Positions 33,379 to 54,174 of a stretch of DNA of 64,000 bases are shown here, in pieces. Source of the stretch: Bdellovibrio sp. (GTDB lineage: Bacteria > Bdellovibrionota > Bdellovibrionia > Bdellovibrionales > Bdellovibrionaceae); contig JAKFCY010000002.1 of assembly GCA_036676395.1 (NCBI GenBank), positions 2,112,001 to 2,176,000 on the forward strand, written 5' to 3'. The stretch's first letter is position 1, and each line of letters begins with the position of its first letter. Both the position numbers and the translations under genes were made by a program. The notes below the pieces were generated by a model. It saw nothing but the letters and a program-made list of their open reading frames with translations. It was not told the origin of the DNA and did not search any database.

Positions 33379-34614
33379 TTATTTTTTCTTTTTCTTAGCT
33401 GGTGCTGTCGGAAGCTTTGAAGCATCATAACCGACAGTTTCAGCTTTGATCTTTTCAGCTTCTAATTTCATTTTTTCAGCTTCAGCATTAGCTCTTTCGG
33501 TTTCAGATTTAACTTTGCTTTCTTCGGCCTGAGCTTTGAACTTTTCAACTGCCGCAGCTAAAGCTTCACGCTCTTGCTTGTTTTTCTCTGTGTCTTTTTT
33601 CATTTGTTCGATCTCAGCCTGGTTCTTTTTGATCTCAGCTTCTAACGAAGCTTGCGACTTTTTCAGCTGGTTCGACTCGGTGTTAAATTGTGCGCTTTCT
33701 TTTAGAAAAGTTGATTTAGTTTTTTCTAATTCAGCACGAGACTTTAAGTTTTGCTCTTTTAATTTATCTTCTTCTTTACGAACGCTTAAGAATTTTTCTT
33801 TTTCTTCGTTTAACTTCAATTGCGATTCTTTTTGTTCTGTTTCTATTTTTTTCACTTCTTCTTTTAAACGATCAACATTTGCCTGGGCCGTATCAATTAA
33901 CGATTTGTGTTTTGCTGCTTCAGCTTCGTTTTTCTTTTTTTCAGCTTCTGCACGTGCTTTTTCCTGAGTAAGCTTTGCTTCGTTCATTTTTAATTCAGCT
34001 TGCGCTTTTTGTGACTGCGCCTGGGCTTTAACTAAATTTTGCTGTAACGTTCTTTGTTCGTTCTGCTGTTCAGCCGTTTCTTTAATGGCTTTCGCTAATT
34101 CATCTTGTGATTTAGAGGTTTCTTTTTCAGTGTCTTTCCAGTTTTTTTCAGCATCACGGGCCGCTGTTTGGGCTGCTTTTGTTTTTTCTTTTGATTCAGC
34201 CGTTTGCTTTTTCAAAGCTTCAATTTTTTCATTAAACGATTTAGTCTTAGCTTCGAATTCAACTTTTTGTTTTTCGCTTTGCGCTTGCTGCTTTTCAGCC
34301 TCAGACATTTCAAGACGCATTTGCGCTAGTTCTTTTTCATATTGCGCTGTCATTTTTTTAGATTCAGCTTCGGCACCACGAGCTTTGTCTAAAGCTTTTT
34401 TTGCCTCATTTAAAACCTGATCATGCTTTTTCTTTTCTTCTTCTAAGCGCTTTTTAGCATCAGCTGCATTTATTTTTGCTTCAGCGGCATCACCGATCGC
34501 TTCTTCAGCCTGAATTTGCGTGTCAGTGGCATCTGCTGCTTGTACACTTTGGCTAACACCCTGAAATAAAAAAACAATTGAAACTAACAGAACAATTTTT
34601 TGCATCGAGAACAT
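33379..34614 (-). CDS. Exported long coiled-coil protein
   Basis: Signal peptide followed by ~350 aa of K/E/A/Q heptads; poly-Lys C-terminus. Confidence 0.75.
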   Translation of the reverse strand: MFSMQKIVLLVSIVFLFQGVSQSVQAADATDTQIQAEEAIGDAAEAKINAADAKKRLEEEKKKHDQVLNEAKKALDKARGAEAESKKMTAQYEKELAQMRLEMSEAEKQQAQSEKQKVEFEAKTKSFNEKIEALKKQTAESKEKTKAAQTAARDAEKNWKDTEKETSKSQDELAKAIKETAEQQNEQRTLQQNLVKAQAQSQKAQAELKMNEAKLTQEKARAEAEKKKNEAEAAKHKSLIDTAQANVDRLKEEVKKIETEQKESQLKLNEEKEKFLSVRKEEDKLKEQNLKSRAELEKTKSTFLKESAQFNTESNQLKKSQASLEAEIKKNQAEIEQMKKDTEKNKQEREALAAAVEKFKAQAEESKVKSETERANAEAEKMKLEAEKIKAETVGYDASKLPTAPAKKKKK

Positions 34615-34728: not shown

Positions 34729-35592
34729 TTATGTTTCTATCTGCGAATTGTTTGTTAAATCTTTTTTAAGAATGACGTCACGAGTGAATTCGTAACTGAA
34801 AAGTAAAGTTAAAGCGGTGTAATAAACCCAAACCAGTAATACAATTAATGACCCTGCGGCCCCGTATGAGGACTCAAGTCCTGCATTTCCCAAATACAAG
34901 CCAATAACCCGTTTACCGATTAAATAGAAAATCGTACTGATCACGCCTGAAATGATACAACTTTTATAAGTCGCCTTATCAGTGGGAACAAACCGGTAAA
35001 TGGCACTAAACACCAAGGCAAATAAACTAAAATTAACGGCAAACGAGACTAAGCCCCAAAAAAAACCCATACCTTCAGGATAAATAATCGCAATCACCAT
35101 AGTAAAAACTAAAGAGGCCACAGATAAAAAGGCAAAACCAAAAACTAAGCCCATCGAAAACAATTTACCCTTAACAAAAATCCAGAAACCACTGGGGTCT
35201 TTTGCAAAAGCGTGTTCATTAATTTTATCCAAAGCGATTTTTAGATTCGAAAAAATAGCTGAAGCTGAAATGGCTAAAACAATAACCCCAATGACTCCGG
35301 ATATTCCTGAAAGTTTTGGATTGCTGTCTGCACTTTCAATCATCGCCAATATGGTTCCCGCAATTTTTTCACCGACGGCTGTCGTTAAGCCTTCGTAAAT
35401 ATTTTGCTGCAAGTCTGGAGACAGTAATGATGCAAACGATAAAGTAATTAACAAAAACGGGGCAAGCGCCAGTGCCGTTGTGTAGGCCAAAGAACTGGCC
35501 ATAACAAAAATATCATGCTTACTTGCATTAGAAACCGCATTCGATAAGCGGGTTTTGAATTCAGAAAAGGGCATTTTTTGAATCAACTGCAT
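34729..35592 (-). CDS. YihY/BrkB family membrane protein
   Basis: ASSLAYTTALALAP and YGAAGSLIVLLVWVYY motifs. Confidence 0.9.
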   Translation of the reverse strand: MQLIQKMPFSEFKTRLSNAVSNASKHDIFVMASSLAYTTALALAPFLLITLSFASLLSPDLQQNIYEGLTTAVGEKIAGTILAMIESADSNPKLSGISGVIGVIVLAISASAIFSNLKIALDKINEHAFAKDPSGFWIFVKGKLFSMGLVFGFAFLSVASLVFTMVIAIIYPEGMGFFWGLVSFAVNFSLFALVFSAIYRFVPTDKATYKSCIISGVISTIFYLIGKRVIGLYLGNAGLESSYGAAGSLIVLLVWVYYTALTLLFSYEFTRDVILKKDLTNNSQIET

Positions 35593-35733
35593 ATGTTAAA
35601 TTTAAAAAGCAAACTTAGAACCAGCTTTTTTCGACCTATTCCGCCACAAACTCGAAACAGCTATCCAGTGACGCGCGTTTCGCGTCACTGTCCAGTGGAT
35701 ATACAGCTCAAATCGCATAAATTGCTTTAAAAC

Positions 35734-35750
35734 TTGGTCACACTATTGCT
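35734..35750 (+). promoter_or_regulatory. Sigma54 (-24/-12) promoter
   Basis: TTGGTCACACTATTGCT with GG-N10-GC spacing; predicted +1 at G35761. Confidence 0.65.
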
Positions 35751-35760
35751 CTATATAAAA

Positions 35761-35812
35761 GCACCCCCCATGGCGGCTAGGCATCCCCCCCTTACCTGGC
35801 CGTCTTTTTTTT
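35761..35812 (+). ncRNA. Candidate ~52-nt C-rich small RNA
   Basis: GCACCCCCCAU, then a 10-bp stem GGCGGCUAGG/CCUGGCCGUC with loop CAUCCCCCCCUUA and a U8 tail, directly after the sigma54 motif. Confidence 0.6.
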
Positions 35813-35852
35813 CTCTTTTCTATAAAGCCCAAAAAAATGCTTAAATTAAGAA

Positions 35853-36557
35853 ATGCGATACGCATTACTTATCCCCATTTTACTATTAACTCTGATGGCA
35901 CAGGCCAATTTCGCTCAACCTGTCGCAAAACCCTTTGTGTTGGTGATTGATCCGGGACACGGTGGCGTCGATGTTGGGGCTGTGCGCGGAATTTTCAAAG
36001 AATCTGACATTACGCTTAAAGTAGCGCAAAAAATCCAGAGCCTGATTCAAAGCCAGTTCTCACAGAATATCGAAGTGATTCTCACTCGTGAAACAAACAA
36101 AAGTTTATCCTTAGAAAATCGCGTAAAAGTGGCCGAAAGACAAAACGCTGATCTTTTCATTAGCCTTCACGCCAACTCTTCACAGGCAAGTTATGTGAGC
36201 GGCATGGAGTTCTATTTTAGAAAAGGTGACAACAAAGTAAAAATGCCTGCGATTGAAGCCTCTATAGGAGTTAAAAAAATTATTGGCGATCTGACCAGCT
36301 TTGGTCAAACCAGACAGAGTCTTAAGTTTAATCAAATTTTGCAAAACCAAGTTAAGGCCTTAGGCAAAGACTCTAAAACCGTTATTAAACGCGCACCATT
36401 TTTTGTGATCGAAAAAACCACGATGCCTTCTGCGCTGATTGAAATTGGCTACATTTCCAATTTAAGCGAAGCGAAACTGCTTCTCACCGAAGAGCGTCAA
36501 CAAGAGATTGCTGAAACGATTGTCAAAAGCATTTACGGCTATAAAAATTCACTCTAG
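35853..36557 (+). CDS. N-acetylmuramoyl-L-alanine amidase (Amidase_3)
   Basis: IDPGHGG, SLHAN and ALIEIGYISN motifs; signal peptide. Confidence 0.92.
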   Translation: MRYALLIPILLLTLMAQANFAQPVAKPFVLVIDPGHGGVDVGAVRGIFKESDITLKVAQKIQSLIQSQFSQNIEVILTRETNKSLSLENRVKVAERQNADLFISLHANSSQASYVSGMEFYFRKGDNKVKMPAIEASIGVKKIIGDLTSFGQTRQSLKFNQILQNQVKALGKDSKTVIKRAPFFVIEKTTMPSALIEIGYISNLSEAKLLLTEERQQEIAETIVKSIYGYKNSL

Positions 36558-36598: not shown

Positions 36599-37369
36599 AT
36601 GACAAATCCATCTCAACACTTCGTTCGCGCCGACAAACGTCTTCACAATCAACTTCGCCAAATTAAAATTACCGCGAATGTTTCAGACTACGCTGAAGGC
36701 TCTGCTTTAGTTGAATTCGGAAACACCCGCGTACTTTGCACAGCGACTTACGAATCGAAAGCCCCGCAATGGCTTGCTGGTTCTGGTGCTGGTTGGGTCA
36801 CTGCTGAATATGGCATGTTACCGCGCTCGACTCACACACGCATGAAACGCGAAAAAACGGCAAGTGGTGGTCGCACCCAAGAAATTTCAAGATTAGTTGG
36901 GCGCAGTCTTCGTTCATGTGTTGAATTAAAAAACCTAGGTGAAAAACAAATCATCATCGATTGCGATGTGATCAACGCCGATGGTGGAACTCGCACCGCT
37001 GCAGTTACAGGTGGATTTGTAGCGTTAGCTTTAGCTTGCAAAAAATTACAAGCCCTTGGTGAAATTAAAACTAATCCTATCAAACATTATGTCGCGGCAA
37101 TTTCTGTTGGTCTTTTTGAAGATGATAAAAATAATTTAATTCCAATCTTAGATTTAAATTACGACGAAGATTCTGATATCGGCACAGATATGAATTTCGT
37201 AATGACAAATAAAAATGAATTCATCGAAGTGCAAGGTACGGCTGAAGAAGGCACGTTCTCGCGTCAGCAATTGTTTGACATGATGACGATCGCTGAACAC
37301 GGCTGCAAAGAATTATTTGAATACCAACAAAAAATCATCGGCGAGTATTATCCGCTGGTTAAGGCTTAA
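36599..37369 (+). CDS. rph: Ribonuclease PH
   Basis: GWVTAEYGMLPRSTHTR, GRTQEISRLVGRSLR and ADGGTRTA motifs. Confidence 0.97.
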   Translation: MTNPSQHFVRADKRLHNQLRQIKITANVSDYAEGSALVEFGNTRVLCTATYESKAPQWLAGSGAGWVTAEYGMLPRSTHTRMKREKTASGGRTQEISRLVGRSLRSCVELKNLGEKQIIIDCDVINADGGTRTAAVTGGFVALALACKKLQALGEIKTNPIKHYVAAISVGLFEDDKNNLIPILDLNYDEDSDIGTDMNFVMTNKNEFIEVQGTAEEGTFSRQQLFDMMTIAEHGCKELFEYQQKIIGEYYPLVKA

Positions 37370-37968: not shown

Positions 37969-37994
37969 CTGCACCACAGTCATAGGGGGATGAA

Positions 37995-52494: not shown

Positions 52495-52586
52495 CTTTTG
52501 CCTCAAGGCAAACCAGAGGGAACTCTGGGACGCAAAGCTATAGGGGCTCGCTGTTTATTCAGCAAAAGCCAGCCAGCTACCAAAGG
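52495..52586 (+). promoter_or_regulatory. c-di-GMP-I (GEMM) riboswitch aptamer
   Basis: GGCAAACC-AGAG-GGAA-CUCU-GG-GACGCAAAGC...GCCAGCCAGCUACC; GNRA-capped P2; P1 CUUUUG/CAAAGG. Confidence 0.9.
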
Positions 52587-54100: not shown

Positions 54101-54174
54101 GCGATGCTCCCCCCAAAATTTAAGGCTACAAGTGAAGAGCAGCGTTTACAAGACTATATTTTACCTGTGGCGAT

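Follow-up and report, generated by a model that had tools for sequence, protein, structure and literature searches.

Comparative sequence analysis indicates that an independent small RNA (sRNA) gene, preceded by a sigma-54-type promoter, very probably lies between a divergent pair of genes, one of the brkB family (34729-35592, minus strand) and one of the Amidase_3 family (Table 1), in a Bdellovibrio genome. Comparison of homologous loci defines the gene, the type of its promoter, its structure and its distribution, and shows it to be independent of the neighbouring genes. With moderate confidence, we further interpret the whole as a free-standing sRNA of ~52 nt, promoted by sigma-54, that acts in trans on G-rich ribosome sites. 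The window, by which we mean the whole 64,000-nt stretch analysed, corresponds to positions 2112001-2176000 of contig C2; the genome is 3.4 Mb in size, with ~39% G+C.

The sRNA gene and its parts

A -24/-12 motif, TGGTCACACTATTGCT, places the predicted +1 on G35761, exactly where the initial annotation had put it, and GCACCCCCCAT, the 5' end of the predicted sRNA, begins ten bases past the motif. Behind the unpaired 5' end, the arms GGCGGCTAGG (35772-35781) and CCTGGCCGTC (35795-35804) pair to form a stem that encloses a loop of 13 nt, CATCCCCCCCTTA (35782-35794). Folding of the 52-nt stretch returned exactly this hairpin (-17.1 kcal/mol, z = -2.95; 1 of 200 shuffled sequences was as stable) and left both C tracts unpaired. 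The 10-bp stem contains 7 G-C pairs and is followed by U8, as in intrinsic terminators, so that sequence and fold agree on the stem, loop and U tail that had been described in front of the amidase gene. The loop is unusually large for a terminator, and a simple terminator scan did not list the hairpin because the scan limited loops to 8 nt. The U tail ends ~40 nt before the ATG of the amidase gene, downstream of which rph, a Ham1-family gene and then prs were recognized with Pfam.

Table 1. Coordinates of the predicted sRNA locus and of two candidate partner genes. Positions are those of the window unless a contig is named.
Feature	Position	Strand	Basis or remark
Sigma-54-type -24/-12 promoter, TGGTCACACTATTGCT	35735-35750	+	GG-N10-GC, with C35749 at -12
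Predicted ~52-nt sRNA	35761-35812	+	Start predicted from promoter geometry, end predicted from terminator
5' single-stranded C6 tract, first seed candidate	35764-35769	+	Unpaired in predicted fold
Terminator hairpin, 10-bp stem and 13-nt loop	35772-35804	+	Fold and order-wide alignment
Loop C7 tract, second seed candidate	35785-35791	+	Unpaired in predicted fold
U8 tail (T8) of intrinsic terminator	35805-35812	+	Sequence; T6-T9 among homologues
N-acetylmuramoyl-L-alanine amidase (Amidase_3), neighbour outside the RNA	35853-36557	+	Pfam
Candidate upstream activator site, GTCACTGTC then dyad TGTC-N9-TACA	35684-35708	+	Alignment of 42 distinct upstream regions
Perfect 10-bp palindrome, CAGTGACGCG-N5-CGCGTCACTG	35666-35690		Sequence; overlaps conserved GTCAC half-site
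NtrC-family response regulator (receiver, sigma-54 ATPase and HTH_8)	C2:2617007; locus L066, 1066-2637	+	G5 ribosome site
dnaA	C3:385257; locus L143	+	GTG start behind G6 run

The paired C tracts are rare in this genome. Two runs of C6 or longer at a distance of 5-30 nt are found at one place in the window, where 0.03 would be expected, and two runs of C5 or longer within 40 nt were found at only 6 places in the whole 3.4 Mb. The -24/-12 motif, in comparison, has 5 matches in the window, where 5.85 are expected; taken alone it is within chance in one window, and its weight therefore rests on conservation. A second -24/-12-like motif, TGGTTCTAAGTTTGCT (35608-35623, minus strand), lies 15 nt before the ATG of brkB and, given the same numbers (5 against 5.85 expected), is probably a chance match.

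Two other features of the stretch were considered and discarded. A small open reading frame starting ATG GCG GCT AGG and running through the hairpin is broken by variation in C-tract length. The end of the loop, ...CCCUUA, resembles the 3' end of 16S rRNA; this likeness we attribute to chance, since the ending is restricted to this genome and close relatives and other species have ...CCAAUA or ...CCAUA.

Distribution and conservation in Bdellovibrionales

A DNA search matched the sRNA in 20 of the 24 further genomes of its genus and in 0 of 16 from outside, and the conserved core within the genus coincided exactly with promoter plus RNA. An exact degenerate pattern recovered 41 species-level genomes, 40 of them titled Pseudobdellovibrio, Bdellovibrio, Bdellovibrionales or similar and one just 'bacterium'. 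We then built a covariance model, R1, from 40 distinct sequences of the genus. It scored 71.9 bits at the locus in the window, which is the single copy in that genome; the second-best match (21 bits, E 0.44) is an ordinary terminator and not a paralogue. Among 151 Bdellovibrionales genomes, R1 detected the sRNA in 84, nearly always as a single copy. These included 30 of 31 genomes of the window's own family (16 of 17 in the sister genus, with complete genomes of 3-4.2 Mb) and 19/31, 15/30 and 8/26 genomes of three other families; in two families R1 found no sRNA (0/7 genomes in each). A second model, R2, built from the order-wide alignment, was applied to a phylum-wide sample. It detected the sRNA in 20 of 23 genomes of the order (21 of 24 with the window's own genome), one of which had been missed by R1, whereas 127 genomes from the phylum's other orders yielded one weak match (34 bits, E 6e-4). 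Judged by these model searches, the sRNA family is diagnostic of one order, Bdellovibrionales.

The RNA is much better conserved than its neighbour: in less closely related species of the genus it is ~90% identical where the adjacent amidase is only 38-51% identical. Both C tracts, unpaired in the predicted fold, are present in all of the 82 distinct homologues, the 5' tract with a length of 4-9 and the longest loop C run with a length of 4-11. The initial annotation had staked its reading on the conservation of these tracts, and in this respect it holds. The other loop residues and the lengths of the C tracts differ between lineages; the homologue of B. bacteriovorus reads CAACCCCCCATGGCGGCCAGG...

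In the order-wide alignment (A3; 39 sequences fitted to the model, 387 stem cells), 99.7% of the stem cells are paired. Compensatory changes affect 4 of the 10 stem pairs (26 cells), including an A-U to U-A exchange in 14 sequences, and none of 500 shuffles reached that level. When the stem positions were slid along the alignment as controls, pairing always dropped, to 17-55%, and RNAalifold produced the same helix unaided. Within the genus the stem is 99.3% paired and varies solely by G-U wobble steps, with no two-sided changes.

The promoter, its putative activator site and the sigma-54 machinery

A sigma-54-type promoter is retained at nearly fixed spacing in 82/82 distinct copies. In 77 of them it takes the form GG-N10-GC with TTGC 14-18 nt (mostly 14) before the C tract, and 22 of these 77 carry the full consensus TGGCAC-N5-TTGC; the remaining 5 read TGGCA-N6-TTGC, with the C tract 19-20 nt further on. 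Sequence in the spacer and after TTGCT varies freely, as expected of a promoter recognized by protein and not of an RNA sequence. The short, independent, sigma-54-promoted unit with two exposed C tracts that had been predicted from the window is thus supported by 82 distinct copies. The genome encodes one RpoN (Sigma54_DBD, 216 bits) and 12 strong Sigma54_activat proteins, the enhancer-binding ATPases.

Alignment of 42 distinct upstream regions revealed a further conserved block, whose dyad is located ~30 nt upstream of the -24 element and, in the genus alignment, at a fixed distance from the promoter. Its consensus is GtCaCTGTc.a.....T..ACA.ct (capitals, at least 90%). The second half of the dyad is TACA in this genome and GACA in most relatives, so that the genus form can be written GTCACTGTC-N9-(G/T)ACAGCT; at the same place, the sister genus has TGTC...TGTC-N9-GACA. 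We take this conserved dyad to be a putative activator site, to which a protein would bind. The perfect palindrome that overlaps it (Table 1) is found in this genome and its closest relative only and is therefore probably a lineage-specific extension of the activator site.

Scanning the genome for TGTC-N9-[GT]ACA together with a -24/-12 motif gave 3 further places. Of two that were translated, one encodes a lipoprotein-like protein rich in Cys and the other an acidic protein without a name, neither of which points to the activator of the sRNA. Two other sigma-54 consensus-like promoters, TGGCACTCGCCTTGCT (C2:384065, plus strand) and TGGCAAGCTCATTGCT (C2:892405, minus strand), are each followed by AAGTAC, spaced as in the sRNA.

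One NtrC-type protein of this genome (C2:2617007), whose gene has a G5 ribosome site, was compared across genomes with and without the RNA. Of 25 RNA-carrying genomes searched, 23 have a full-length orthologue, the exceptions being G029 and G032, and five genomes without the RNA gave only truncated matches (residues 1-398/412). NCBIfam assigned no named subfamily to the protein. On this sequence-based evidence, it is a possible cognate activator, a possible feedback target, or both, and we offer it as a lead only.

Orientation of the sRNA gene relative to the amidase gene

The amidase is the conserved neighbour of the sRNA in most lineages. Within the genus, amidase and rph follow downstream on the same strand at 17 of 20 loci, the other 3 being cut by contig ends, and in other families the amidase is downstream on the same strand at 15 of 22 loci. 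In the sister genus (loci L093-L111, compared with L001-L020), the sRNA gene is inverted between the same divergent flanking genes. There it points away from the amidase at 14 of 16 loci (the other 2 gave no hit) and faces the homologue of a 411-aa gene, and in several of these genomes an extra gene of ~1 kb separates sRNA and amidase. At two further loci, L105 and L127, the sRNA and the amidase run in divergent directions. Five loci lack an amidase within 1.5 kb; at three of them (L115, L124 and L126) the next gene is convergent, so that there is nothing downstream for the sRNA to lead into.

The unit thus has its own promoter and terminator, and its orientation flips between genera. The inversion, the convergent neighbours and the conservation of the RNA above that of the amidase together argue for a free-standing gene, not an obligatory amidase leader. 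Occasional read-through into the amidase gene, ~40 nt downstream in most lineages, may still take place.

The 411-aa protein (33379-34614, minus strand) belongs to no Pfam or NCBIfam family; its homologue, with 30-52% identity, is the conserved second neighbour across the family. In one soil metatranscriptome (5% of words), two contigs covered 35394-35569 (brkB) and 36614-36814 (rph) only, with the sRNA stretch outside both.

G-rich ribosome sites and candidate targets

Two complementarities within the window had led to the proposal that the sRNA silences mltD and prs, and both are present as described. A mltD-like gene carries TGGGGGGAGC at 54106-54115 (minus strand), 8 nt before its GTG, with 9 of 10 positions pairing with the 5' arm, and prs carries GGGGGATG at 37985-37992, 5 nt before its ATG, with 8 of 8 positions pairing with the loop. 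By duplex energy against 2743 start regions of the genome, mltD ranked 5th, dnaA about 9th and prs about 12th.

The genome contains a pool of G-rich ribosome sites as possible targets. In 74 of 699 cases, a run of G5 or longer precedes a plausible gene start by 2-12 nt, versus 10 of 699 for C5 or longer; for runs of six or more at the ribosome-site position, the corresponding counts are 15/99 for G and 0/99 for C. Altogether, 278 genes have G4 or longer and ~74 have G5 or longer at this position. Because ~74 genome-wide amounts to ~1.4 per 64 kb, the two G5+ ribosome-site runs in the window are unremarkable. Genes with sites of G6 or longer include those for fliW, smpB, dnaA, endonuclease I, an S41 peptidase, an FHA protein and the mltD-like transglycosylase.

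Conservation of the candidate targets was assessed in 30 chosen genomes, 25 with the RNA and 5 without, which are related, so that the counts are not independent; start codons of orthologues were placed by alignment offset. The G5+ tract of prs was found in 1 of 30 relatives and that of mltD in none of the 30: mltD has G4 in the closest relative, GGAGG in the sister genus and ordinary GGAG sites in the rest. In five diverse genomes each, fliW, smpB and the FHA gene had no G5+ run (0/5). Of the 7 genes with G5+ or G6+ sites that were tested, 5 (prs, mltD, fliW, smpB and the FHA gene) thus show no conservation of the run; for a gene with a G8 site, no homologue was found in five diverse genomes. 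The proposal that mltD and prs are targets is therefore favoured by their high rank in this genome and disfavoured by the lack of conservation of their G tracts. The more general idea of silencing in trans at G-rich ribosome sites remains the best explanation, at the moderate confidence given above, with those two named targets unsupported by conservation. The role in a life-cycle switch that the initial annotation had proposed is likewise unsupported.

Two genes showed better-conserved G-rich sites. At dnaA, the site GAGGGG(G..) contains G5 or longer in 9 of 18 and G4 or longer in 15 of 18 RNA carriers with upstream sequence, compared with G5 or longer in 1 of 5 genomes without the RNA. At the NtrC-type activator gene, 11 of 23 orthologues in carriers have a G5+ site, compared with 1 of 5 genomes without the RNA. 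Considered as possible targets on these alignments, dnaA and the activator gene are leads, not findings. The GAGGGG(G) ribosome site of dnaA is kept across most of the order. A G-rich site may also be a mere strong variant of the ribosome-binding site.

With respect to protein partners, Hfq (PF17209) was not found in the genome, which is 99.3% complete, by a search that detected it in control genomes; this fits pairing driven by G-C pairs. CsrA is present. The usual binding motif of CsrA is GGA in a loop, and no such GGA was seen in the sRNA.

At C2 ~896,960-897,015 (minus strand; locus L288, ~111-166), a hairpin of similar design is found at the 3' end of a lipoprotein gene, with C5 before the stem, C6 in the loop (TGTCCCCCCG) and the tail TTTTCCCCCTTTT. 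The lipoprotein gene itself has a predicted sigma-54 promoter and a G5 ribosome site and encodes 229 aa without a Pfam family. From its sequence, the hairpin may be another regulatory RNA rich in C, one that derives from a 3' UTR. A genome scan for more elements of this kind had been proposed along with the sRNA: R1 gave a single copy and paired C5+ runs gave the 6 places mentioned above, with the L288 hairpin alike in design.

Comparison with known small RNAs

With Rfam 15, no match at gathering level was obtained at the sRNA, the only such match in the window being a c-di-GMP-I riboswitch, and a permissive scan of 35500-35950 gave no match with E < 1. The only Rfam model that aligned to the sRNA at all was 6C RNA (RF01066), at 19.6 bits against a gathering threshold of 47 (E = 3) and with the first of the model's two hairpins deleted in the alignment; we rejected this assignment. 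A full-text search of the literature on Bdellovibrio small RNAs and sigma-54 turned up no description of the sRNA. Apparently, the initial annotation was right in not recognizing a described family.

Several known small RNAs share parts of its design. The Qrr RNAs of Vibrio are driven by sigma-54 and LuxO, are ~100 nt long with several hairpins, depend on Hfq and feed back on luxO. The present case would likewise join a small RNA gene with a sigma-54-type promoter to a putative NtrC-type activator, and the partly conserved G-rich site of the activator gene would allow a similar feedback loop. In contrast to Qrr, this RNA is ~52 nt long with one hairpin and no Rfam match, in a genome in which no Hfq was found. 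RepG of Helicobacter pylori, whose host has no Hfq, pairs through a C/U-rich terminator loop with a homopolymeric G repeat located in the leader of an mRNA. The two resemble each other in placing a C-rich pairing site in the terminator loop; RepG, however, is longer and, to our knowledge, neither has a second, 5' C tract nor depends on sigma-54.

In Xanthomonas, the abstract on sX13 describes unpaired C-rich motifs that repress mRNAs with G-rich motifs near translation starts, with Hfq dispensable (PMC3771888). C-rich unpaired motifs, G-rich ribosome sites and no need for Hfq are common to both systems as described there. In both, a minority of genes have G-rich ribosome sites, put at 5% in that organism; here, ~74 genes have G5+ and 278 have G4+ sites. 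The two RNAs differ in build, sX13 consisting of three stem-loops with C-rich loops and this RNA of a single hairpin and a 5' tail; they also belong to different phyla, and the abstract on sX13 is silent on a sigma-54 promoter (PMC3771888). No homology to sX13, in sequence or structure, was found in the Rfam scan, where 6C was the sole weak match. The 6C RNA of Actinobacteria is described, in the available text, as pairing with mRNAs through its C-rich loops by multiple G-C pairs without a chaperone, with targets including dnaB (PMC6486639). The C-rich loops are shared, and dnaB, a replication gene, parallels the dnaA lead here. In contrast, 6C has two hairpins and this RNA one, the lineages differ, and the same text reports no sigma-54 promoter for 6C.

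The one published survey of Bdellovibrio small RNAs that was found lists, in its available part, eight RNAs of the attack phase, of which three have FliA promoters and none is described as depending on sigma-54, as well as a massively expressed riboswitch RNA without a downstream ORF (PMC3627812). In a rough comparison with sister-genus genomes, which may or may not include the published strain, the available coordinates of the eight RNAs included none near the sRNA site (PMC3627812). The c-di-GMP-I riboswitch aptamer of the window is located at 52497-52584 (plus strand; 67.6 bits against a gathering threshold of 35) and adjoins the end of the mltD-like gene.

The sRNA would thus be of a known type, a chaperone-independent small RNA with a C-rich seed under sigma-54 control as in Qrr or GlmY; the family itself is new and unusually small.

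Discussion

Transcription of the sRNA, its dependence on sigma-54, its action in trans and its targets are what we infer from the comparative data. In the proposed mechanism, an enhancer-binding protein on the upstream dyad would activate sigma-54 RNA polymerase; transcription would start ~12 nt past the GC element and end at the hairpin and U8 of the terminator. The product would have an unpaired 5' end with a C tract and one hairpin that displays the second C tract in its large loop. Most likely it needs no Hfq for its action in trans: either C tract, or both together, would base-pair with G-rich segments of mRNAs that overlap or lie close to the ribosome-binding site and block the initiation of translation, as with other C-rich small RNAs.

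Explanations that assign the element to other functions, or to none, were weighed against this mechanism. If the sigma-54 promoter drove the amidase-rph operon and the hairpin were a regulated terminator, with a factor binding the C tracts to set read-through, the frequent same-strand arrangement (17/20 genus loci and 15/22 loci of other families) would be accounted for, as would the interval of ~40 nt from U tail to amidase ATG, in which no sigma-70-like promoter was called. The initial annotation had itself raised such attenuation as a rival case. We consider it unlikely, because the unit points away from the amidase at 14 of 16 sister-genus loci and at L105 and L127, and because five loci lack an amidase within 1.5 kb, three of them with a convergent next gene; moreover, a weak TAnnnT box, found repeatedly in the interval from U tail to amidase ATG, may be the amidase's own promoter, a candidate from sequence. 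It is very unlikely that the RNA start serves as a nucleotide sensor, with polymerase slipping on the C run at +4 to +9 and output tied to nucleotide pools. Such reiterative transcription is known from pyrimidine operons, the homopolymer does lie in the initially transcribed region, and RNase PH, the Ham1-family gene and PRPP synthetase are encoded in the downstream cluster; yet this would leave unexplained the equally conserved C tract of the loop and the loci without rph, Ham1-family and prs neighbours.

A decoy or protein-binding RNA, in which the C tracts titrate or guide a C-preferring protein, is rather unlikely to be the answer. Rho, KH-domain and cold-shock proteins prefer C-rich RNA, the conserved feature is a C run of variable length (4-9 and 4-11) and not a defined seed, and individual G-rich sites in mRNAs are mostly unconserved. 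Set against these points, CsrA is present but no GGA is seen in the sRNA loop, and the known small RNAs with C tracts act, in the accounts available, by base pairing (PMC3771888, PMC6486639). That there is no functional RNA, and that a chance promoter-like motif stands beside an ordinary terminator, we regard as extremely unlikely. The frequency of the -24/-12 pattern in the window (5 versus 5.85 expected) would agree with it; it is contradicted by the order-wide conservation, in which promoter, spacing, C tracts, hairpin and tail are kept in 82 distinct copies, and no upstream gene in the orientation of the sRNA is there for the hairpin to terminate.

Pairing in trans by a free-standing, sigma-54-promoted sRNA therefore remains our preferred reading. 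A bolder version of it, which we hold to be unlikely, is an order-specific master riboregulator: one signal received through sigma-54 and its activator would be passed on to dnaA translation and, in a Qrr/LuxO-like feedback, to the mRNA of an NtrC-type activator, with two homopolymeric C seeds as its only means and without a chaperone.

How Bdellovibrio and its relatives regulate their predatory life cycle is poorly understood. A short RNA that is single-copy, predicted to be under sigma-54 control and kept across the order offers a precise handle for experiments. Its design, a C-rich seed on a G-rich ribosome site without Hfq, would extend to another phylum a principle known elsewhere, in its smallest form so far, with one hairpin and ~52 nt. 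If the master-riboregulator reading were true, it would tie the sRNA to the initiation of replication, the event at the heart of the attack-to-growth switch.
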